A stretch of DNA of 64,000 nt. Source: an uncultured delta proteobacterium. Its GTDB lineage: Bacteria > Desulfobacterota > Syntrophobacteria > Syntrophobacterales > Syntrophobacteraceae. The DNA is taken from assembly GCA_963808625.1 (NCBI GenBank), contig CAWEHK010000025.1, forward strand, positions 32,001 to 96,000, given 5' to 3'. Below are positions 52,349 to 63,809 of this stretch, piece after piece (positions within the stretch are counted from its first letter, which is position 1; each line of letters opens with the position of its first letter). The notes under the pieces were generated by a model. It had not been told where the DNA came from. It saw only the letters and a list, made by a program, of their open reading frames with translations, and did no database searches. Both the position numbers and the translations under genes were made by a program.

Positions 52349-52882
52349 ATGCCTCGCAGCCGTTACCGCATACTCCACAGCCAATATCCACACTTCATGA
52401 CTGCAACCATCAACAACTGGCTGCCTCTCTTCACCTACCCCGAAGCGGTGACCATCGTTCTCGATTCCTGGCGGTTTCTACAGCAGAGCAGCCTCTTTGA
52501 GATCTTTGGTTATGTCATTCTCGAAAATCACCTGCATCTGGTTGCCCGTTCCCAAGACCTGAGCCGCGATATACAGCGGTTCAAATCCTACACCGCCAAG
52601 GCAATCGTGAGTTATCTACAGGCCCAAAACGCAACGCCATGGTTGCACCTGCTGGAATGGTTTAAACGCCCGCATAAAGGGCAATCCACCTATCAGGTTT
52701 GGGAGGAGGGCAGCCATCCGCAGATTATCGAAAGCGAAGCCGTGTTGAGGCAGAAGCTGGAGTATATTCATCAGAACCCAGTCAAGCGCGGTTATGTCGA
52801 TCTGGCTGAACACTGGCGTTATTCCAGCGCCCGGAATTATGCGGGGAAAGAGGGTTTGATAGAGGTTTGTAAGACATGGTAA
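52349..52882 (+). mobile_element. REP-associated tyrosine transposase (RAYT, HUH family)
   Basis: HFMTAT, YVILENHLHLV (HUH), FKSYTAK, EYIHQNPVKRG and WRYSSA motifs; flanked by palindromes. Confidence 0.92.
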
Positions 52883-53093: not shown

Positions 53094-53321
53094 TCAGGTT
53101 CGCGCTTCACGGCCTTCACGAATAATCTGGACCACTTCCTCTGTCGAGATATTCAGGCAGATGCCCTCACCATCCAAAGGGGAATCGCGGCGAACCTCAG
53201 GGGTGATCAGGAAAACCTGGCCGTCCTTGCGCACTATCCTGACTTCCCCCTCTGTTGCCGCCTGTTCCAGCAAACTCGCAAGGTTCTGCCGTGCCTTTGA
53301 AAAGTTGTAAAGAACAGCCAT
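53094..53321 (-). CDS. Phd/YefM family antitoxin
   Basis: YNFSKARQNLASLLEQA..EGEVRIVRKDG; RBS GGAGGTG. Confidence 0.85.
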   Translation of the reverse strand: MAVLYNFSKARQNLASLLEQAATEGEVRIVRKDGQVFLITPEVRRDSPLDGEGICLNISTEEVVQIIREGREART

Positions 53322-53590
53322 CAGCACACCTCCTTCACCTGGATGCCCATACTCTTCGCAGAGGCAACCAGATTTCGATCGAGCGAAACCAAAACGGCCC
53401 TGTATTTTTGAGCGCACCTGATGATGTAGGCATCGTATGCATAGATGTTCAGCTCATGAGCGATTTTCAACGACTGCTCCAGTTCGACATCGAGAAATCT
53501 TATGGGTATTTTTCCGTACACCTGCAAAGCCTTTAAGGCCTCGTCAGGGGTTATTCTCTTCCGCTTCAGCATGGCCGAGAAGGCATTATC
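53321..53590 (-). pseudogene. PIN-domain (VapC) toxin lacking its N-terminus
   Basis: NAFSAM, IYAYDAYII and LVSLDRNL motifs; first acidic motif absent, replaced by a palindromic repeat. Confidence 0.75.
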
Positions 53591-54357
53591 TCTGCCAACG
53601 GAGGGCGGGTTTTCCAACCCGTTATGAGCTCTTTCCTCGTCATCTCGACCGAAGGGAGAGATCGTTAAATGAACAGCCACAGATGAAGAACTCTCGCTTC
53701 GCTCGAAATGATAGCGTTGCCAAATTATTTAGGAATCGATCTACTAGTGTTCATCCGGAAACTGCGCATGTTTGAGTTCGGACTGAAGGGGAGGGGTTTT
53801 CCCCATATGCATCAAGCTAACTTTACGGCCCTGAAGGGGCTCGATAAATTAGCCCAGGGTCAGCGCTAGCGCCACCCTGGGGAGCCAGGTACAACACGAC
53901 TGTCTACCCTGAAGGGGTTGCATAAAACATAGCGGTACAACGATTTATTTAACCCTATGGACACTATCTAGACAAAGCGCTTAGTTTAGGATTTAATGCA
54001 TCGCCGACAACAATTCCGGTACTCAACGGCTCTTGAAGGAAATCATCTCTCCCAGCCGTCGCCTTAAAGTCATGCTTTATTGCCGTTCCGGGACCTTCAT
54101 AATGATGCTCAAATGCTCCAACAGCGCCAGGGAAGCTTTATCATGGGCATTCGAATTCAGTCCCCCAGCCTCACCGTCGTGGTTGACGATTCGCAAAGCC
54201 ATGGAAGACTCCAAAAGGCCGCCCCCTGGCCGCACCGTCACGGTTCACGATCAAATGAATCAATGGAAAGCAATCGGTCCGGAGCTTGTCCTGCTCCCTG
54301 GTTGTTCAGCGGCATAATAAGGAAATCCAATACGAGGAAGGGAAAGGAGCTTGACCA

Positions 54358-56979
54358 ATGAGCCCAACGGATGATCTGAAATGGCTTCGTGGAGGACGTC
54401 GTTTGATCCGGATGCTGGCTTCCGCCGGCTTGTTCTTCCTCCTGCTTCTAGCGGCGGGGTCGGGACCTCGGGCCGAAGGAACGGGCGCCGATGCCTTCCT
54501 TCGGTTTACGGCCGGCGGTCATGTTCTGGGCTTCGGGAAAAGCGCCCTGTACGTTGCCTCAGCCAACCACATGGTAAAGGTCGATTTGGCTGGAGGACGC
54601 GCGGTGGCGCCAGCCATGGAAGAAGGCGCGGTGTCAGGGGCGGGAGGCGCTTCCGGCAAGGCGCCGCCCCTCAGCCGGGTTGCCTACTCGGAGGTATGGG
54701 ATGGGGTAACGGTGATTTATGAAAAGCAGGACGACGCCATCTTGGAGAGCTCCTATGAGATAAAGGCGGGCGCAGGGAGAAAGGCTCTCGAACAAATCCG
54801 CCTGCACTACAACCGGCCGGTGCGTCTTGATGAGCAAGGCGATCTGATCATCCCCTGCAAAACCGGAGCGATGCGCGAACGCGCGCCAGTAGCGTGGCAG
54901 GAGACCGGCAGCGGGAGAAAGTACGTGACCGCGGCGTATCGCCTCATGAGCGAGCATGAGGTCGGGTTCGAGGTGGGTGACTACGAGGGTGGGCTTCCCC
55001 TCATGATCGACCCGACCATGACCTGGAACACCTTTCTCGGCGGCAATGATACGGATCAAGGCTATGGCATCGCTGTGGATGGAACTGGCAATGTCTACGT
55101 AGTAGGGGACAGTAATGACACCTGGGGCTCGCCTGTGCGCGCTTTTCAGGGTAACGGTGACGCCTTTGTGACGAAGCTTGACAGCAGTGGCAATCTTCTC
55201 TGGAGCACCTTCCTGGGCGGCGACGACTTCGATGAAGGCTTCGGCATTGCCGTGGATGGCAACCTGACCGCGAATGTTTACGTGACAGGATATAGTTGGG
55301 CCGGTTGGGGCGAGCCCGTGCAGGGATTTTCTGATTACAGCAACGCCTTTGCGGCGAGGCTCGCGAGCAATGGTGCGGTTGTCTGGAATACCTTTCTGGG
55401 CGGCGGCGAAGCAACAACCTATGGCCAAGCCATTGCTGTGGACAGTAATGCGACTGCGAATGTCTACGTGACCGGCTGGAGCGATGCCTCATGGGGTCCT
55501 TCGCCAGTCAGGCCTTACACAGGTTTGGATGATGCCTTTGCGGCCAGGCTCGGAAGTACTGGTGGGCTTGTCTGGAACACTTTTCTGGGGGGCAGCGGAC
55601 AGGATGCCGGCTATGGCATTGCTGTGGATCAAAATGGCAACGTCTACGTAGCAGGGGACAGCAATACCACGTGGAGCGAGGTACCGGTTCGACCATTTTC
55701 CGCCGGCGCGGACGCCTTTGCGGCGAAGCTTGACAGCAGCGGCAGTCTTACCTGGTATACCTTCCTGGGCGGGAGTGGCGAGGATCACGGAACCGTCATT
55801 GCGGTGGATGGCAATGCGACGGCAAACGCCTACGTGGCCGGATTCAGCTATGCTTCCTGGGGCTCGCCCGTCAATGCCTACTCGGGGGATGTAGATGCTT
55901 TTGCGGCCAGGCTTTCGAGCAATGGCGGGCTCCTTTGGAACAGCTTCCTGGGGAGCGAGAGCTATGATGACGGCCTTGGCATTGCCGTGGATAGAGACGG
56001 AAGTGTGCTTGTGACGGGTACCAGTACCGCCTCGTGGGGCTCGCCCCTGAGGGCGTTCTCGAATGCCGACAATCCCTCCGCCCACGATGCTTTTGTGGCA
56101 AAACTGAGTAGCAGTGGTTGGCTGACCTGGAATACCTTCCTCGGCGGCGAGCTGGCAACTACGTATGGCACGGCTGTAACCGTGGACACGATTACAAATG
56201 TCTACGTGACAGGTTATAGTGATTACACTTGGGGCTCGCCGGTGAGGGCACATTACCCATACGACCCGAACTCCAGCACCCTTGATGACGCCTTCGTCGC
56301 CAAGCTCCCGTCCACACCAACCCTGGTCGAGGTGGTTTCATTTCGTGCCAAAGCCGGAAGGGATTACATCGAGCTCACCTGGGAAACGGCTTCCGAGGTC
56401 CGGAACGTCGGCTTTTTCCTGTGGCGAAAAGGGAGCGGGGAGCGCTCCTCCGCCCGCATCAGCGGGTTCATTCCGTCCGAGAGCTTGTTTACCCTGGGCG
56501 CGAAGTATACCTATAAGGACATCGATGTGTTGCCGGGTGTCACCTACCGATACCGCCTGGAGGATGTCGATATCCACGACGGGAGAAGCTTTCACGGCCC
56601 GGTGGCGGCAACCATCGGCGATATCGTCACGGTCGCCCCGAAGCAGGGGAAAAAGGTCCCGGTTCGACCACGTCCTCGTTTCAGGTGGACCAGCGAGTAC
56701 TTCGACCGGTTCCGGCTGGAGTTCTCGGCAAGCCCCGGTTTTGAGTCAAAACAGGTGGTCGCCATCCCTCTGCCGAAAACTGGAGTAGCTGCCGCAAAGA
56801 CCCCGTGGCTCACGGCCCAGTCCTACACGCCTTTGGCTCGGGAATGGAAAGCGATCAACCGGCTTGGCTCCGGTGGCGGGCGCGTGTATTGGCGCGTAGA
56901 GGGGAAGAACAAACTGGGCGCCACGTTCCGCTCCAAAGCGAGTCATTTTTCCCTGGACCTCGGGCCTGCGTCCCAATGA
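54358..56979 (+). CDS. Secreted SBBP (seven-bladed beta-propeller) repeat protein
   Basis: Signal peptide; seven ~60-aa repeats W.TFLGG....G.GIAVD..NVYV.G.S...WG...DAF.AKL; C-terminal beta domain starting PTLVEVVSFRA. Confidence 0.9.
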   Translation: MSPTDDLKWLRGGRRLIRMLASAGLFFLLLLAAGSGPRAEGTGADAFLRFTAGGHVLGFGKSALYVASANHMVKVDLAGGRAVAPAMEEGAVSGAGGASGKAPPLSRVAYSEVWDGVTVIYEKQDDAILESSYEIKAGAGRKALEQIRLHYNRPVRLDEQGDLIIPCKTGAMRERAPVAWQETGSGRKYVTAAYRLMSEHEVGFEVGDYEGGLPLMIDPTMTWNTFLGGNDTDQGYGIAVDGTGNVYVVGDSNDTWGSPVRAFQGNGDAFVTKLDSSGNLLWSTFLGGDDFDEGFGIAVDGNLTANVYVTGYSWAGWGEPVQGFSDYSNAFAARLASNGAVVWNTFLGGGEATTYGQAIAVDSNATANVYVTGWSDASWGPSPVRPYTGLDDAFAARLGSTGGLVWNTFLGGSGQDAGYGIAVDQNGNVYVAGDSNTTWSEVPVRPFSAGADAFAAKLDSSGSLTWYTFLGGSGEDHGTVIAVDGNATANAYVAGFSYASWGSPVNAYSGDVDAFAARLSSNGGLLWNSFLGSESYDDGLGIAVDRDGSVLVTGTSTASWGSPLRAFSNADNPSAHDAFVAKLSSSGWLTWNTFLGGELATTYGTAVTVDTITNVYVTGYSDYTWGSPVRAHYPYDPNSSTLDDAFVAKLPSTPTLVEVVSFRAKAGRDYIELTWETASEVRNVGFFLWRKGSGERSSARISGFIPSESLFTLGAKYTYKDIDVLPGVTYRYRLEDVDIHDGRSFHGPVAATIGDIVTVAPKQGKKVPVRPRPRFRWTSEYFDRFRLEFSASPGFESKQVVAIPLPKTGVAAAKTPWLTAQSYTPLAREWKAINRLGSGGGRVYWRVEGKNKLGATFRSKASHFSLDLGPASQ

Positions 56980-57435
56980 GAATCCAGCCGTGGTGATATG
57001 GTTGCCGGTGCCGGCGGCAATGAGGACTCACGCTTCCTCGGGCAAACCCCGGTTCCTGCTGGATATTTGCAGCATCCCTGGTGATCCGGCCTTGACGATG
57101 AAATAGAGGGGCGGAAATCAGATTTTCCTATTGCTTTCAGGCGCATAATATTGTTATACGTAATCGTTGTTATGTAAATGAATCGGGGGTCGTCACAAAC
57201 CAACCTCTTGCGCTAACGAAGAATTGTAAACACATAAATTCAATCACTTATGACAGCGTCCCGGGGTGACGACCCTTGCGTTTGCGTCACATTGTTCGAG
57301 AACTGCTGCCGACGGTGCCGTAGCAAGGTCGGGGTTTATTTTCATCCCTCAGGGTGAACCGTGCTCCCCGTTCATGCCTGTTAAGCCTGGCACAGCGCCG
57401 CATAGAAGCGTGTCCAGGTTCCGTGCTTAGATGCG

Positions 57436-57600
57436 TAGGTTGGGTTTCGTTCCGTTGCGAAACACGCAGATAGTTTTGAATGTCCCGGGGAACGAAACCC
57501 AACAAGGGCCGACCAACTGAAGCGGAATGTTGGGTTTCCTTCCTGATCAGTCACGGCATTGTGAACCGCAATCATGGTGAGGAACGAAACCCAACCTGCG
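57436..57600. repeat. REP-like inverted repeats
   Basis: GTTGGGTTTCGTTCC / GGAACGAAACCCAAC in alternating orientation, four copies (one degenerate). Confidence 0.8.
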
Positions 57601-57655: not shown

Positions 57656-57943
57656 ATGAGCTTGGCGGCACAACCTATCCCCAATCCGGCAGTGCTTTTT
57701 CGAGAGGTACCCATGGATGAGTGGGCCGTCCTGTTCAATCCGGAGAACTTCTGTGCGATGTCCCTCAATGCCACCGGCGTGGTCGTGTGGAAATTGATCG
57801 ACGGGCGGCGCACGATCGCGGAGATCGTCGCGGGGGTGAAAGCCCATTTCAAGGACGTGCCGGACACGGTAACCGACGATATCGCCGCCCTGCTGAAAGT
57901 ACTGAGTGGCGACGGTTACGTGGGGTATGAGGTAACCGCATGA
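57656..57943 (+). CDS. scmD: PqqD-family RiPP recognition element (ScmD-like)
   Basis: PIPNPAVLFRE..DEWAVLFNPE....LNATG..VWKLIDGRRT. Confidence 0.85.
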   Translation: MSLAAQPIPNPAVLFREVPMDEWAVLFNPENFCAMSLNATGVVVWKLIDGRRTIAEIVAGVKAHFKDVPDTVTDDIAALLKVLSGDGYVGYEVTA

Positions 57944-58227
57944 AGACAAGACAGTATGTGGCCAATCCGGTCGTCTCCTGCCGTGAGGAGGAAGGGGGCG
58001 CTGTGCTCTTCAATCCCGATACCGACGATATGGTCATCATCAACCCCACCGGCCGGGTGATCTGGGACTTTCTCGCGACCCCTCGCAATACGGTGCAGGT
58101 AGCGGCTCACGTCGTAGAAAAGTTCCAGGGGGTTTCCCCCGAGCAGGCGGCGACCGATGCCGAAGCTTTCCTTCAGTCCCTGCTGCCGGACTTTATTCTG
58201 GAAGCGGAGGGGACTGATGAAGCCTGA
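57940..58227 (+). CDS. Second PqqD-family RRE protein
   Basis: NPVVSCREEEGGAVLFNPDT....INPTG..IW; ATGA overlap with the first RRE gene. Confidence 0.85.
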   Translation: MKTRQYVANPVVSCREEEGGAVLFNPDTDDMVIINPTGRVIWDFLATPRNTVQVAAHVVEKFQGVSPEQAATDAEAFLQSLLPDFILEAEGTDEA

Positions 58228-59359
58228 GTCGATGGCGGCCATGGACCTGACCGTCCCACCCAAGGGTGTGCCCCCGGCCCCGAGAACGGTCGACCTGTCT
58301 CTTACGGGTCGCTGCAACTTGCAATGCCGCTATTGTTTTTTCGCGGACTCGATGGCTGCGCTCACCGATCTCCCAACGGTGTCATGGCTCTCTTTCTTTG
58401 AGGAGCTTGGTGAGCTGGCGGTGCTGCGGGTGACCCTCTCCGGCGGGGAGGTCTTCACTCGCCCCGACTTGTTTCAATTGCTTGACGGCATCATCGCCGC
58501 CAGGATGCGCTATAGCCTGCTCTCCAACGGCACCCTCATCACCGAGCAGGTGATCCGCCGTTTTGAGGAAGGCAAGCGCCGTTTGCGCCTGGATTCCATC
58601 CAAATCTCCATCGATGGTTCCTGTGCCGAGGTCCACAACCGCAGTCGTCCGCCGGACAGCTTCGACCGCGCCCTGAATGGGCTCAAGCTGCTCAAGGCGA
58701 ACGGCTTTCCGGTGACGGTCCGGGTTACGGTGAACCGGCATAACCTCGACGACCTGGAAAACATTGCCCGTTTGCTGCTGGAAGATATTGGCCTGAGCGG
58801 GTTCGGTACCAATGAAGTTGAATTCATGGGCGCCGCCCGCTGCCACGGCCAGGAAGTGGTGCTGACGCCGGGAGAGCGCCGGCAGGCCATGGCTGCCCTG
58901 GTCGCCCTGAACGAGAAATATGAGGGCCGCATCAGCGCCAATGCCGGGCCCCTCGCCGCGGCAAAGTCATTCTCGGACATCGAAGCCAGGCTGGCCCAGG
59001 GGGAGACGCACATGCCGGGTCGGGGGACCCTCTGCTCATGCGGCGGGGTCTTCAGCAAGATGGCAGTCCTCCACGACGGCGCGATGGTCCCCTGCGACAT
59101 GCTCCCCACTCTGGTCATGGGCAGGGCGGGCAAAGATCCCTTGCGCGATGCCTGGCTCCATCACCCGGCCATCAACGCCGTGCGAGCCCGGCGGGAGGTC
59201 CCCCTCAGCTCGCTCGCCACCTGCCGGGGCTGCCCTTACACCGGGTTCTGTGCGGGTGGGTGTCCGGCGTCGGTGATGGCCAAATATAGTCGTCTCGATG
59301 CCCGCGACCCCCTTTGCTGCTACCGGATCTACCGGGGAGAAGAGAGGGTTGATGGTTGA
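58217..59359 (+). CDS. scmE: Radical SAM/SPASM maturase, ScmE-like
   Basis: CNLQCRYC, LSGGE, SIQISIDG; SPASM cysteines CSCGG..PC..CRGCPYTGFCAGGCPA. Confidence 0.85.
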   Translation: MKPESMAAMDLTVPPKGVPPAPRTVDLSLTGRCNLQCRYCFFADSMAALTDLPTVSWLSFFEELGELAVLRVTLSGGEVFTRPDLFQLLDGIIAARMRYSLLSNGTLITEQVIRRFEEGKRRLRLDSIQISIDGSCAEVHNRSRPPDSFDRALNGLKLLKANGFPVTVRVTVNRHNLDDLENIARLLLEDIGLSGFGTNEVEFMGAARCHGQEVVLTPGERRQAMAALVALNEKYEGRISANAGPLAAAKSFSDIEARLAQGETHMPGRGTLCSCGGVFSKMAVLHDGAMVPCDMLPTLVMGRAGKDPLRDAWLHHPAINAVRARREVPLSSLATCRGCPYTGFCAGGCPASVMAKYSRLDARDPLCCYRIYRGEERVDG

Positions 59360-59402
59360 TAGTTGATGGTTGATAGTTGAGGGTTGAGGGTTGATGGTTG
59401 AT
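59347..59402 (+). repeat. (GGTTGAT)n array overlapping the scmE stop
   Basis: About eight units. Confidence 0.9.
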
Positions 59403-59660
59403 ATGCTCGTTTGGGTTGATAACCTTGATTTTGGCGGACTTGGGAATTAACCGCAGAGCACGCTGAGATCGCAGAGAAAGCCAATGATTCTTTCTGTGGC
59501 CTCTGTACTACTAAGGTTCAAATTGTTTAAATCTTATCAAGATTTTTGCTTAACTTTTTGTTTTCTCCGCGTTCTCTGCGTTCTCTGCGGTGGAAGAATA
59601 AATATTTGAACCTTTACGAGTATGGTTGATGGATCTACCAGGGAGAAGAGCTTGAGTTCC

Positions 59661-60830
59661 ATGAGCTTGTGTGATTTTATGGAACCGGATAACGGCCAGA
59701 GCGGACCGCTGCCCCAGGATCTGCCCGAGGGCGTGCCGCCGCTTCGAGCCTTTTACCTTTATCTCTCCACCAGCTGCAACCTGCGCTGTCGCCACTGCTG
59801 GATCACCCCGAGCTTTGTCGACGGCATTCCGGCTGGCCGAGGACGTAATTCCGGTGGAAGCGCTCCGGGATGCCGTGATCGAGGCCAAACCGCTGGGCCT
59901 CTGCCACGCCAAGCTGACTGGCGGGGAACCCCTCCTGCACCCGCGCTTTGTCGGAATCGTGGACATGCTGACGGCCGAGGGGTTGCAGATGAATATGGAA
60001 ACCAACGGCACGCTGATGACTGCCGAGCTTGGCCGCCATCTCAAGGAGAAGACCAACGTCAGCTTCATCTCGATCAGCCTGGATGGGGCCGACGCCAAAA
60101 CTCACGACCGGTTTCGCGGCGTGGTCGGGGCTTACGATGCGGCGTTGAGAGGATTGGCGCACCTGACGGATGCTGGATACAGCAACGTTCAGGTGATCAT
60201 GAGCGTCCATCGCGGCAACCTGGACCAGATCGATGGCCTGGTGCGGCTGGTGGCGGACCGCGGTGCGGGATCGGTCAAGTTCAACCCGGTTAGCTTTGCC
60301 GGGCGGGGAACCACCATGCATGAGCGGGGGGAGACCCTGGACTACGAGGAGCGGATGGCCCTGGCCGCGGCCGTTCGAGAGGAGTTGCCAGAGACGTTTC
60401 TCCATCCCCCTCATCTGCTTTCATCCACCGGCCCAGAAATCCATGCGGCACCTGTGGGATACCTCGCCGACAGCCCACCGATTGCGGGGTCCGCCACATT
60501 CTGGGCATCCTGGGGACGGGGGACATTGCCTTGTGCGGGATCGGCCGGACCGTCCCCGAGCTGGTCTACGGGCAACTGGGGAAAAACAGCATCCGGGAGA
60601 TCTGGTTGACACATCCCACGATCCTCGAGCTCCGCCGGCTTCTGGACGACTTCAGGAATTTTCCCGGCATATGCGGCCGGTGCATCCATGCCAAAACCTG
60701 CCGCACGGGCTGTGTCGCGATGAACTATGTCGACGCTCGGCAACTCGTCTGGCCGGACCCGCTGTGCCAGGAGTCAGAACGACGAGGGCTGTTTCCGGCC
60801 AGCCGGAAAAGGAAATCCGGCGGCCCTTGA
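59661..60830 (+). CDS. scmF: Radical SAM/SPASM maturase, ScmF-like (frameshifted)
   Basis: FYLYLSTSCNLRCRHCWITP, KLTGGEP, ALCGIG and GICGRCIHAKTCRTGCVAMNY motifs. Confidence 0.85.
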
Positions 60831-61032
60831 GCAGCGAACACCTCAAGGAAAGCACATCATAGCAATCGAGTACACGTGGGCCGAAATAAGTAGCCAGTTC
60901 CGGTGGGCACGGTGAAGCTGTGCCCACCCTACAGTGTTCCCGGACCCGTAGGGTGGGCAGGTTTTTTGCCCACCGCAAACATGCACGAACTTATACCCAT
61001 GTGTACTAGAGAGATGAGTGTTCATGAGGGCC

Positions 61033-61048
61033 TGGCATTATTTATGCA
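61033..61048 (+). promoter_or_regulatory. Possible sigma54 promoter upstream of the precursor gene
   Basis: TGGCATTATTTATGCA (GG-N10-GC). Confidence 0.4.
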
Positions 61049-61256
61049 TCTCAACAGTCGAAAGTTGCGTTTGTTCTATCATTCTGGATGCCCGCCAGAA
61101 GCACGCGGGCATGACGATAGTTGGCCTGTTGCCGCACCGTCATTCCCGCAGGCTTTTGGCGGGAATCCAGAAACTGAGACAAATCTAGGATTTCACCCTT
61201 AACGAGTATAGAATGATCATTTTCATGTATAATGAACCTTTGCAGGGAGAAGCGAC

Positions 61257-61496
61257 GTGTTGAAAAATGGAAAGGACGATCTGACGGACCGGCGGCCAAC
61301 ATACGAACCACCACAGGCCTTACGCATGGATGATATCCATGCAGGGGCAGGTGGGCAGGATTGTACCTCTGGCGCTAGCGCTGGAGGTGCTAACTGCGCT
61401 ACGGGCGGCGCCGCTATCGGTGGACAGTGTATTAGTCCAGGGACTTCTGCTGCTACTGGTCAATGTAAATTTGGTGATGGAGCCTCTACATTTTAG
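61257..61496 (+). CDS. RiPP precursor peptide, ScmA-like
   Basis: RBS GGGAG; leader with YEPP motif; Gly/Ala/Ser/Thr-rich core with four regularly spaced Cys; lies inside the maturase cluster. Confidence 0.8.
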   Translation: MLKNGKDDLTDRRPTYEPPQALRMDDIHAGAGGQDCTSGASAGGANCATGGAAIGGQCISPGTSAATGQCKFGDGASTF

Positions 61497-61561
61497 GGCG
61501 CAAGACTTACGGAGCTTTTGTGCCATGGGTGGAGGAACTCGATGAAAGCAGGGACCGGCGG

Positions 61562-62520
61562 ATGGGGTTCGATTCGTCTCAAAAGAACTTTGGGGTCTTC
61601 TCCTGCGGGGGGGTTACTCTGATTCTAACACCATCCTCCACATATAGCCTTCCCCTTGCTGACGGGACCTGCTGGCTGGTTCGGGCCGGCGTCCCGGAGG
61701 CTGAGCACGTGGTGGCCCGTCTTGGAGCGGCTATGGAACTGCCGCCGGGCGGCGGCTCCGGCCGGGAACTGGTGGTTGGGTTCCACGGCCACCAGGCTTC
61801 CTCACCTGCTGCCCTGCGTGCAGCCCAGGGACCATCAGTGTGTCTGGTGAGCCCTCCCTGCAACGGGGAGAGGTTCGCCTTTCAGGCTATGCAGATATCC
61901 ATGACCATCGTCAGGGATGCGCAGGTCCGTGGGGGATTGCTCATTCACGGCGCGCTGGCCGCGTGGCAGGGGTCCGCTGAAAAGGCCGGCGGAATGGTTT
62001 CGGGTGCCATCATGGCGGGGCCGGGTAGCGTCGGGAAGACTACGGCCAGCAGTCGCCTGTCCGGCCCCTGGCGGTCCCTCAGCGATGACATGACCCTGGT
62101 GGTTCGTGACCCTCAAGGCCATTACTGGGCGCATCCCTGGCCCACCTGGGGGCGGTTTTTGGAAAATGCGGCCGGCGTTTCCTGGCCGGTGCCGCAGGGC
62201 CGTGCCCCTGCGGGCCGTTTTTTTCCTTTCCCAATCGCCCAACGACTCGGTAACCCCACTCAACACCGCCCAAACAATCGCCCTGCTGATCGAATCCGTG
62301 CAGCAGGCCTCCTCGCCCATGGTCTGCGCGTTGCCGGAGACCGAGGCTGCGGCTGTCTATGAGGAACAACTGGCGGCGGCCAGCGAGCTCGCCCGGACCA
62401 TCCCTGCCTACCGGCTCAGCATAAGCCTGGACGGCGCCTTCTGGAAGGAAATGGAAAGCGTGCTCGCGGCGGCCCCAGCCCGCCCGGTTGCATCTCGCCG
62501 AGCGTCACCCCCTTCGCCTC
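61562..62520 (+). CDS. scmC: ScmC-like P-loop (HPr-kinase-like) protein, frameshifted; probably continuous with the downstream peptidase
   Basis: GLLIHGALA, AGPGSVGKTT, LSDDMTLV, YWAHPWPTW and PLRAVFFLSQ motifs. Confidence 0.8.
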
Positions 62521-63175
62521 GGGTGCGACTGCCCGGAAGGTCCCCCGCTGCCGGTCGTCTACACCGGTCCCAGCATGAACCCCACCCTGCAGGGAGCCGG
62601 ACCTGCTGGAGGTGGTCCCTTACGACGGAAGAGCGGTGTGCAAGGGGGACGTCATCTATTTCCACCCGCCGGGTGGGGGGCTCGCGGTCGTCCACCGGGT
62701 CGCGCGGGTCTTGCGGGAAGGCGTCCGCACCCGGGGAGACAACAACCCGATGGAAGACCCTTATTCTGTGCCTCATTCGGCCATTATCGGGCAGGTCGTA
62801 GCCGCGCAGCGGGATGGGCGTCGCCGCCGCGTCGCTGGCGGCTGGCAAGGCCGGATGCAATACCACCTGGCGAGGCTTGAAGGCACCGCGCTGCGCCTGG
62901 GCCAGAGACTCTTGAGCCGGCTGTACCAGGGGCTGGCAAGGTCCGGTCTCTTTCGCCAGGTCCTCCCCCCGAGGCTCACCCCCCGCCTGGTCGGGTTCGA
63001 AACGAGACGCGGCAGGCAGCTCAAGGTGATGATGGGAAGCCGTGCGGTAGCCCACTACCACCCGCTCGGGAGAGTGTGGCAGGTTCGTCGGCCCTTTCGC
63101 CTGTTTGTGGATGAGGCCGTTCTGCCCCGGCCCGAGAGCGAATTCCCTCAATCAGCCCCAGCGCTGGTGAAATAA
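62521..63175 (+). CDS. S24/S26-family peptidase domain (frameshifted)
   Basis: YTGPSMNPTL (catalytic Ser), GDVIYF, VVHRV and TRGDNN motifs. Confidence 0.8.
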
Positions 63176-63471
63176 CTGCAAGCAGATACCAGAACGCCCT
63201 CCATCTTTTTTATCCACGAATTCACACGAAGATTTGTGAAGACACACGAAGAACTCACTTCGTGGTCTTCGTGATCTTCGTGCTCTTCGTGGTGAAAGAT
63301 AAGGTGGTCTTTTGATTCATGCGCAGGGCCGGGTCCGCCAAGAACGCTGACCACGGTGATGGAGACTGGGTTGGGCATTGTACTGAAGCAGCCCAGTGGA
63401 TCGGTAACGCGGACCGTGCAGGCCCCAAGCGGCGAAATGGAGAAGCGGTAGTGTGGTCGTCATGATCAAGT

Positions 63472-63573
63472 CTAGATGAAGACGTATTGCCCCTGCGTTG
63501 CTATAATGTCCACGGCATCGGGCAGTCCCTCGGCAAAGTCACAGTAAGTGTTGGTATCAAGGACCAGCTTCAC
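63472..63573 (-). pseudogene. VapC/PIN toxin, N-terminal 33 aa only
   Basis: GTGA overlap with the antitoxin; MKLVLDTNTYCDF...YVFI then stop. Confidence 0.65.
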
Positions 63574-63809
63574 TCCCAGTCCCCTTCGTGGATCTCATTG
63601 AAGACCCGTAGTGAAGCTCGCAGCTCATCCGCTTCCTCGCGAGTCATCCAACCCGCCAGCTCACGAACCAGCTTTTCGCGATTTTTCAGCAAGCCAAGCT
63701 TTTCATCAATAGCCTCAAGGATAAAAGCCGTCTTGGATTTTCCGGCTCTTCCTGCAACTTTTCGAATTATCGCCTCTTTCTCAGAAGGAATCCTCAGACT
63801 CACGGGCAT
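63570..63809 (-). CDS. Ribbon-helix-helix (CopG-like) antitoxin
   Basis: PVSLRIP....GKSKTAFILEAIDEKL; RBS GGAGGTG; C-terminus LAGWM..EEADE. Confidence 0.8.
   Translation of the reverse strand: MPVSLRIPSEKEAIIRKVAGRAGKSKTAFILEAIDEKLGLLKNREKLVRELAGWMTREEADELRASLRVFNEIHEGDWE

Follow-up and report, generated by a model that had tools for sequence, protein, structure and literature searches.

A divergent SynChlorMet-type cassette in an uncultured Syntrophobacteraceae bacterium, with a Cys/Gly-repeat precursor and a probable kinase-peptidase fusion

Introduction

Several described peptide systems bear on the locus considered here, a SynChlorMet (Scm)-like cassette for a peptide made on the ribosome and modified after its translation (RiPP) that lies complete on the + strand at 57656-63175 of a 64,000-nt stretch from an uncultured Syntrophobacteraceae bacterium (GenBank assembly GCA_963808625.1, contig CAWEHK010000025.1, positions 32,001 to 96,000; this whole stretch is hereafter the window). 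In the system for linear polyphosphorylated peptides (LPP), a leader with a YxxP motif is bound by a RiPP recognition element (RRE), a signal peptidase I of archaeal type (SpI) cleaves in an RRE-dependent manner with the Tyr at -16, and an HprK kinase phosphorylates a Ser (PMC13381572). StsB is a proven Cys-Gly sactisynthase (PMC10288494), and the thuricin CD pair TrnC/TrnD indicates that a single reaction can rely on two radical S-adenosylmethionine (SAM) enzymes (PMC12093266). The Scm names were not found by term search in PMC9062424, PMC10114670, PMC7470986, PMC3531188 or PMC13635244, and the main text of PMC13381572 makes no mention of radical SAM enzymes, SPASM or Scm.

Judged by its genes, the cassette is a genuine, divergent Scm-type RiPP variant, of a kind that is catalogued but chemically unstudied; we call it divergent because the window copy, as assembled, misses all Scm cut-offs. 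By a slender preference we further propose, as a joint claim read from the sequences, a divergent Scm maturation in which the radical SAM pair would form four Cys-to-Gly rings, the leader would be removed in an RRE-dependent step and a Ser might be phosphorylated. Scm cassettes are widespread and have curated hidden Markov models, and the value of this locus lies in a testable Cys/Gly rule, its clade features and its link to the LPP module rather than in the frameshifted copy itself.

Results

Gene content and fit to the SynChlorMet models

The Scm models are the best NCBIfam matches for five gene products (ScmD twice, ScmE, ScmF and ScmC), which bears out the first-pass annotation's description of a Scm-type gene set with RREs, two radical SAM genes and a further nucleotide-binding protein. 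Its seven genes are probably six, as the P-loop and S26 parts, listed there as separate genes, align as a single protein of about 540 amino acids (aa) in intact relatives. The features are as follows.

57656..57943, + strand: RRE 1, PqqD-like, closer to ScmD (PF05402, 54.2 bits; TIGR04248, 72 bits against a cut-off of 100; family alignment)
57940..58227, + strand: RRE 2, PqqD-like, of a distinct subfamily (PF05402, 46.6 bits; TIGR04248, 37.7 bits, also below 100; lasso PqqD NF033530, 36.3 bits; family alignment)
58217..59359, + strand: intact ScmE-like radical SAM/SPASM enzyme of 380 aa (TIGR04250, 388.5 bits, cut-off 400)
59348..59591, no strand assigned: intergenic repeats of the host, situated between ScmE and ScmF (and likewise at 57434-57600, 60898-60978 and 63200-63300)
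about 59679..60830, + strand, start uncertain (59622 possible): ScmF-like radical SAM/SPASM enzyme in four frame pieces (TIGR04251 best for three of them)
61257..61496, + strand: precursor, 79 aa, Cys/Gly-rich (own profile, 46-52 bits; GGGAG ribosome site)
61520..63175, + strand, start uncertain: probable fusion of ScmC (HprK-like kinase), an archaeal-type S26 peptidase and a C-terminal domain (TIGR04249, TIGR02228)

The NCBIfam cut-offs are 400 bits for ScmE (TIGR04250) and for ScmF (TIGR04251), 100 for ScmD (TIGR04248), 125 for ScmC (TIGR04249) and 35 for ScmA (TIGR04252). ScmE falls short of its own, with the next family at 120.9 bits and thus a margin of 267 bits. The scores of the two fragmented genes are those of their pieces, 31.9, 168.2 and 70.3 bits for ScmF, where an intact relative of 68% identity reaches 347.5, and 71.7 and 76.7 bits for ScmC, where intact clade relatives reach 183.4 and 156, above the cut-off. 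The ScmA model has no match to the 79-aa open reading frame (ORF) even at E 10. It matches the canonical precursor in genome G015 at 75.7 bits, and it is narrow, also missing the precursors of genomes G001 and G006, whose ScmE pass the cut-off. The model check that the first-pass annotation had proposed therefore came out mixed: ScmC, D, E and F are the best matches, ScmD and ScmE stay below cut-off, as do the separately scored pieces of ScmC and ScmF, and ScmA finds nothing. Co-location of a precursor, an RRE, two radical SAM/SPASM genes and ScmC is seen in the window and in its relatives.

A role of both radical SAM enzymes in the synthesis of heme or a different cofactor, with the small ORF a bystander, is extremely unlikely. 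The AhbD and NirJ models are indeed among the next-best matches (99.1 and 93.8 bits), yet the heme and cofactor models (AhbC/D, NirJ, PqqE, MftC) all score under 100 bits and below their cut-offs (99.1/500, 94.1/515, 96.9/381 and 94.6/265 bits), and on the same window enzyme the heme b synthase model gives 99.1 bits against 388.5 for ScmE. A separate and weaker pair of ScmE-model matches, probably the heme genes, sits on contig C43 of the genome, and precursors accompany 29 of 33 Scm loci. The non-peptide assignment that the first-pass annotation had named as its refutation was thus not what we found.

The precursor and its Cys/Gly rule

The visible precursor of the first-pass annotation stands: the 79-aa ORF is the sole match in its genome to our own profile of neighbouring peptides (46-52 bits) and, on this evidence, is not a chance frame. 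It has no NCBIfam or Pfam match, and an ESM Atlas search returned only unnamed clusters (0.91-0.93), with recognition below the reliable level. Its leader carries the YxxP motif (Tyr16, Pro19) and Ala-Gly-Ala at 29-31, and its core consists of four units at Cys36, 47, 58 and 70, of which Cys58 opens a C-x3-G unit and the other three C-x2-G units. The family as a whole has a Tyr-x-x-Pro leader with Leu at +8, followed by 2-9 Cys units spaced mostly 10-11 residues apart.

A strict pattern runs through these cores. Among the 369 Cys of 75 distinct precursors, 267 are followed by Gly at +3 and a further 93, out of the remaining 102, by Gly at +4, which makes 360 of 369 together; where +3 is Gly, +4 is Gly in only 53 of 267 cases, about background. 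The last Cys unit follows the rule in 74 of 75 precursors, and in a shuffle control (66 precursors, 500 shuffles) the observed 97% compares with a mean of 36% and a maximum of 44%. Picking ORFs by leader only gave 164 candidates, many of them spurious frames, with 377 of 658 Cys conforming overall, and recovered real precursors without any CxxG, all C-x3-G, both among the matches listed. Because the rule is a strict either/or of Gly at +3 or +4 that includes the last Cys, we take Gly to be the probable acceptor residue, and the rule provides a residue-level, directly testable prediction.

Two unusual precursor arrangements were seen in other loci. In L071 (1244-2292 and 6672-8367), a Scm cassette is accompanied by a second precursor family of several small ORFs, which combine a WxxP leader with four Cys and lie close to a further RRE, S26 and radical SAM gene; this recalls the WxxP/YxxP discrimination of PMC13381572. 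At L117:3127-3615 and in L167, the precursor has a long Gly-Thr repeat between the first and second Cys units.

The radical SAM pair

We analysed 100 distinct ScmE and 68 ScmF sequences, leaving aside copies from the window's own genome, duplicates, and short loci for which a longer version took their place. CxxxCxxC is kept in 100 of 100 ScmE and 68 of 68 ScmF, and Cx2Cx5Cx3C in 99 of 100 and 68 of 68, with the seven SPASM cysteines conserved; in the window ScmE the former lies at 33/37/40 and the seven cysteines at 275, 293, 336, 339, 345, 349 and 368. Seven SPASM cysteines leave one open auxiliary iron site, as in thioether-forming enzymes. A structure model of ScmE (pLDDT 86.5) has its top fold matches in SuiB, PqqE, CteB and anSME at 15-20% identity, and these matches of a modelled fold do not fix the chemistry. 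The best sequence matches to solved structures are SkfB and PqqE, at about 1e-17, and no close relative has been solved.

Six catalytic-site positions, as defined in PMC10288494, were read off the alignments. Of 68 ScmF sequences, 62 have W,T,E,S,G,I there, as do the window pieces, a near-invariant site in a protein that is less conserved overall than ScmE (45% vs 49% mean identity). In ScmE they vary by clade (FSLSNM, FTLSHN, HQLSIQ, VSNSDR), the window having FSLSDM, and both the F,S/T,L,S,N/H,L/M sites of ScmE and the window-type ScmE resemble Y,T,I,S,K,L of StsB (PMC10288494) and Y,T,F,S,Q,L of SkfB. The simple form of a division of labour, in which ScmE would make C-x2-G and ScmF C-x3-G rings, was rejected, as many two-enzyme loci have only C-x2-G units.

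Remote structural relatives and an ScmF site that matches neither StsB nor SkfB leave room for a different fate of the Cys: they might undergo non-sactionine chemistry, such as the formation of a backbone heterocycle or a thiooxazole, desulfuration or crosslinking over a longer range, or else remain free as ligands for metal, which Cys/Gly repeats could chelate, with Gly serving only for a turn. We consider this quite improbable. A single Gly at either +3 or +4, after the last Cys as well, fits an acceptor, and the thiooxazole maturase model SbtM gives just 58.8 bits against a cut-off of 350.

The first-pass annotation had inferred two different radical reactions, and a form of that idea deserves a hearing although we find it rather doubtful: one enzyme would form the Cys-Gly thioethers while the other would perform, for example, an epimerisation or C-H functionalisation at the Ala, Pro or Val three residues after the Gly, a position that is Ala in 50%, Pro in 17% and Val in 9% of units. 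The site residues of the two enzymes do differ (F,S,L,S,N,M-type vs W,T,E,S,G,I), neither has lost any cluster ligand, and the window clade has two intact RREs. Yet the 75 distinct precursors hold no second strictly conserved core residue, so that with one strictly conserved modifiable motif only the claim as worded lacks support; the core pattern stays constant, unlike the ScmE site, which differs strongly from clade to clade; and TrnC and TrnD, each an active radical SAM enzyme, nonetheless serve one thioether reaction (PMC12093266). A pair of the TrnC/TrnD type fits as well.

The kinase-peptidase and its possible substrates

The P-loop protein of the first-pass annotation is, by its motifs, an HprK/PEPCK-fold kinase; with the peptidase it probably makes up one fused gene, both parts aligning as one protein to intact relatives. 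The ScmC domain has the HprK motifs HGAL, Walker A GPGSVGKT and DD, with weak HprK model and structure matches (E 0.03-0.07) and PEPCK/HprK fold matches. The S26 domain matches SEC11 at E 1e-12 and TIGR02228 at 38.3 bits, and keeps Ser-His-Asp (GPSMNP, VHR, GDN).

A small-x-small motif precedes the first Cys in 62 of 75 leaders, peaking 16 residues past the Tyr. Our proposal for the cleavage site follows from LppA, where the Tyr is at -16 (PMC13381572): taking Tyr16 of the window as -16 would put Ala-Gly-Ala at -3 to -1. A complex prediction of the RREs with the leader (residues 6-42) scored 0.19 against a mark of 0.32, gave no verdict and is not used as evidence. Ser directly follows the unit Gly in 34 of 74 first units vs 60 of 285 later units, and at this first-unit position 28 of the 56 precursors that have a kinase carry Ser, against 0 of the 8 that lack one, those 8 all having Gly.

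Relatives, clade and distribution

Among 8000 scored sequences, 1572 ScmE relatives lie at E 1e-60 or better, the closest (65-80%) being named from Chloroflexota, Methanospirillum, Desulfobulbaceae and WOR-3. ScmE is above cut-off in 3 of 40 related genomes, and the clade profile is matched at E 1e-60 in 33 of 400 genomes of the phylum. Flank counts were taken on the 33 loci whose flanks reach 4 kb or more on one side and 5 kb or more on the other; in these we find an RRE in 31, ScmF in 30, a precursor in 29, the kinase in 25, S26 in 22, NTP_transf_5 in 20 and an ABC exporter in 17. Genomes G001 and G006 have only the precursor, RRE, ScmE and ScmF within 20 kb and no ScmC genome-wide; the kinase is therefore accessory.

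In a quick maximum-likelihood tree, the window falls into a 35-row clade (SH-aLRT 99), apart from same-genus copies (41-45% identity). Within this clade, 18 of 23 loci carry two strong RREs vs 0 of 45 elsewhere, the kinase-to-S26 fusion is seen in 14 of 15 vs 0 of 24, and C-x3-G units stand at 75 of 167 Cys vs 18 of 203. Because the loci are kin, these contrasts amount to one evolutionary event and not to a statistic. Fusions in the reverse order occur outside the clade, in L020 and L167.

Other loci show further variation. Cassettes are expanded in L060, L065, L067, L158, L053 and L032, through as many as five precursors, a second copy of ScmF (L060) or a second, adjoining cassette; in L057, L087, L088 and L095 the Scm locus is surrounded by genes for polysaccharides (Wzz/tyrosine kinase and a probable DegT aminotransferase), as is reported of LPP clusters; and L169, L171 and L172 have ScmE-like genes without ScmF or precursor within 20 kb.

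Frameshifts in the window copy

Frameshift-aware alignment against four intact relatives places three breaks in ScmF (near 59835, 60388 and 60464; 64-68% identity) and three in the kinase-S26 gene, or four against one of the relatives (near 62192, 62520-62560 and 62590; 45-50% identity). Neither gene has an in-frame stop, and all catalytic motifs of both are intact. As a control, conserved genes from 20 stretches, each 20 kb long, of G006, a genome of the same genus, were aligned to the window's genome: 41 of 92 were frameshifted. They hold 66 shifts over 99.7 kb, or 0.66 per kb, and 48 of these share the sense of the six cassette shifts, which all run one way. Against this background, six shifts in 4.6 kb have a P(6 or more) of 0.09. 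The six frameshifts are likely assembly errors, fitting genome-wide noise. Only one public sequencing run overlaps part of the stretch (share 0.07), with no RNA dataset listed, and the short reads from that run resolved no frameshift site.

Clearly unlikely, in our estimate, is that the family works as proposed while the window copy is a decaying remnant, its ScmF and kinase-peptidase genes truly broken and its exporter and nucleotidyltransferase lost. What would speak for decay is the concentration of the shifts, three in each of two genes, where just 4 of 53 similar-sized control genes have at least 3; a cruder, tblastn-based rate that is lower (33 of 104 genes, 0.35 per kb) and would make six an excess; the host repeats between cassette genes; and the lack of linked ABC or NTP_transf_5 genes, the genomic matches to which are distant and unlinked. 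The lack of in-frame stops, the intact motifs, the identity of ScmF to its relatives, the similarly frameshifted control genes and the minimal cassettes of G001 and G006, which have no kinase, peptidase or exporter, all point the other way. Either way the window copy is a poor test object, with two genes frameshifted in the assembly, and intact clade members such as L038, L053 and L060 are better ones.

Surroundings of the cassette

As the first-pass annotation had stated, no exporter lies in the window; neither an ABC exporter nor an NTP_transf_5 gene was found there or in the 20 kb beyond. The matches elsewhere in the genome, which is 84.6% complete, are 27-49% (exporter) and 23-35% (NTP_transf_5) identical and unlinked to the cassette; the only NTP_transf_5-profile match is G000:C51:146676-147878, with that latter identity to cassette nucleotidyltransferases. 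Promoter and terminator scans gave counts at chance level only. The 12-16-mers of the intergenic repeats occur in 7-71 copies on 6-30 contigs of the genome, and these repeats are probably not functional parts of the cassette. A gene at 52349-52882, without a Pfam match and by its motif a probable REP-associated transposase, lies in a region where, with its flanks, several families of genome-wide intergenic palindromes are seen, some also within the cassette.

Upstream, 54358-56979 (+) encodes a secreted protein of 873 aa, an SBBP beta-propeller that contains DUF7948 and a C-terminal domain; it was rejected as a cassette part, no homolog standing beside ScmE in the relatives' loci fetched. Its C-terminal domain recurs in a large fragmented protein just past the window (L025) and, by eye, before the C12 cluster. 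This cluster, G000:C12:13000-21000, is a second RRE-linked system of the genome, with large secreted proteins followed by an HprK-like kinase, PqqD and a radical SAM gene; no Scm-type precursor was found there. A Phd/PIN toxin-antitoxin pair (53094-53680, -) precedes the SBBP gene, an antitoxin-like gene and a probable broken PIN gene (63472-63809, -) follow the cassette, and a GalE-like gene 7 kb upstream is the window's only polysaccharide-type neighbour.

Discussion

We suggest the following course for the maturation. The precursor, of 79 residues, is likely bound by the RREs at its YxxP leader, and ScmE and ScmF, which may act together on one motif, likely join each of the four Cys to the alpha-carbon of the Gly three or four residues downstream; the product core would then hold four tandem, non-overlapping sactionine rings, at about -8 Da. 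ScmF, with its invariant site, would be the likelier catalytic constant, and ScmE, with its clade-variable site, a partner or a determinant of ring size, a contrast that tells which enzyme to knock out first. The S26 domain would likely cut off the leader, after Ala31 or Gly32, and the HprK-like domain might, as an optional step, phosphorylate a core Ser close to the first ring. For its export the product would depend on a transporter that is not linked to the cassette.

A number of points weigh against this proposal. Gly may be kept for a tight turn and not as an acceptor, and the +3 count is biased by the seed of our precursor profile, 51 ORFs chosen for having at least three CxxG. The association of the first-unit Ser with the kinase leans on kinase-less precursors from two lineages only, and the first unit of the window itself has Ala at that position, with a Ser adjacent to that Ala. 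In the literature searched, to which subscription journals are mostly external, no paper on the chemistry of a Scm product was found.

A bolder version, which we regard as unlikely though with an appreciable chance of being right, holds that Scm is a large, unrecognised "beads-on-a-string" class of sactipeptides made by an obligate ScmE/ScmF pair, that ScmF forms i+3/i+4 rings never seen before, that ScmE sets ring size, and that an LPP-type kinase-peptidase adds a phosphate and possibly a nucleotide. If it were true, the window's clade would have gained C-x3-G rings, and cyclic-phosphorylated peptides would occur across anaerobic bacteria and methanogens.

Comparison with known systems

The closest system is the SynChlorMet cassette (ScmA/C/D/E/F), which has the same gene set and the best-matching models, and whose precursor in G015 has the same leader and C-x2-G repeats. 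From this canonical form the window departs in an ScmE that is 44% identical to that of G015 and belongs to another clade, and in the additions of its clade: two intact RREs, the kinase-S26 fusion and many C-x3-G units.

With the LPP (LppAKBSDN) and paeninodin-type lasso clusters, the window has in common a YxxP leader, a discrete RRE, an archaeal-type SpI with Ser-His-Asp and an HprK-like kinase (PMC13381572), and this link explains the kinase and the peptidase. LPP-like extras occur in the window's relatives, NTP_transf_5 in 20 of 33 loci and an MsbA-like exporter in 17 of 33, neither being linked in the window's genome. Unlike LPP, where the core is linear and no cyclising enzyme takes part, the window adds two radical SAM/SPASM enzymes, Cys-repeat cores and the fusion of kinase and peptidase; that it is without the FET leader end and the core Ser3 site (PMC13381572) counts against our proposal.

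StsA/StsB and BlaA/BlaB provide a precedent for Cys-to-Gly alpha-carbon thioethers made by an RRE-dependent SPASM enzyme with site residues near those of ScmE (PMC10288494). On the opposing side, those proven Cys-Gly sactipeptides are hairpins, not i to i+3/i+4 rings, and are made by one enzyme, and the W,T,E,S,G,I site of ScmF has no likeness there. The StsB model gives 94.9 bits on the window enzyme against a cut-off of 625, and the xlsx supplement of PMC10288494 has no Scm names and, among the matches listed, no clear family member. CrpC/CrpA (PMC13692751) were considered as the same system and set aside as a different family, TIGR04463. Thuricin CD, finally, likewise places two adjacent radical SAM enzymes, TrnC/TrnD, in a thioether pathway (PMC12093266); the Scm precursors and host differ from it.

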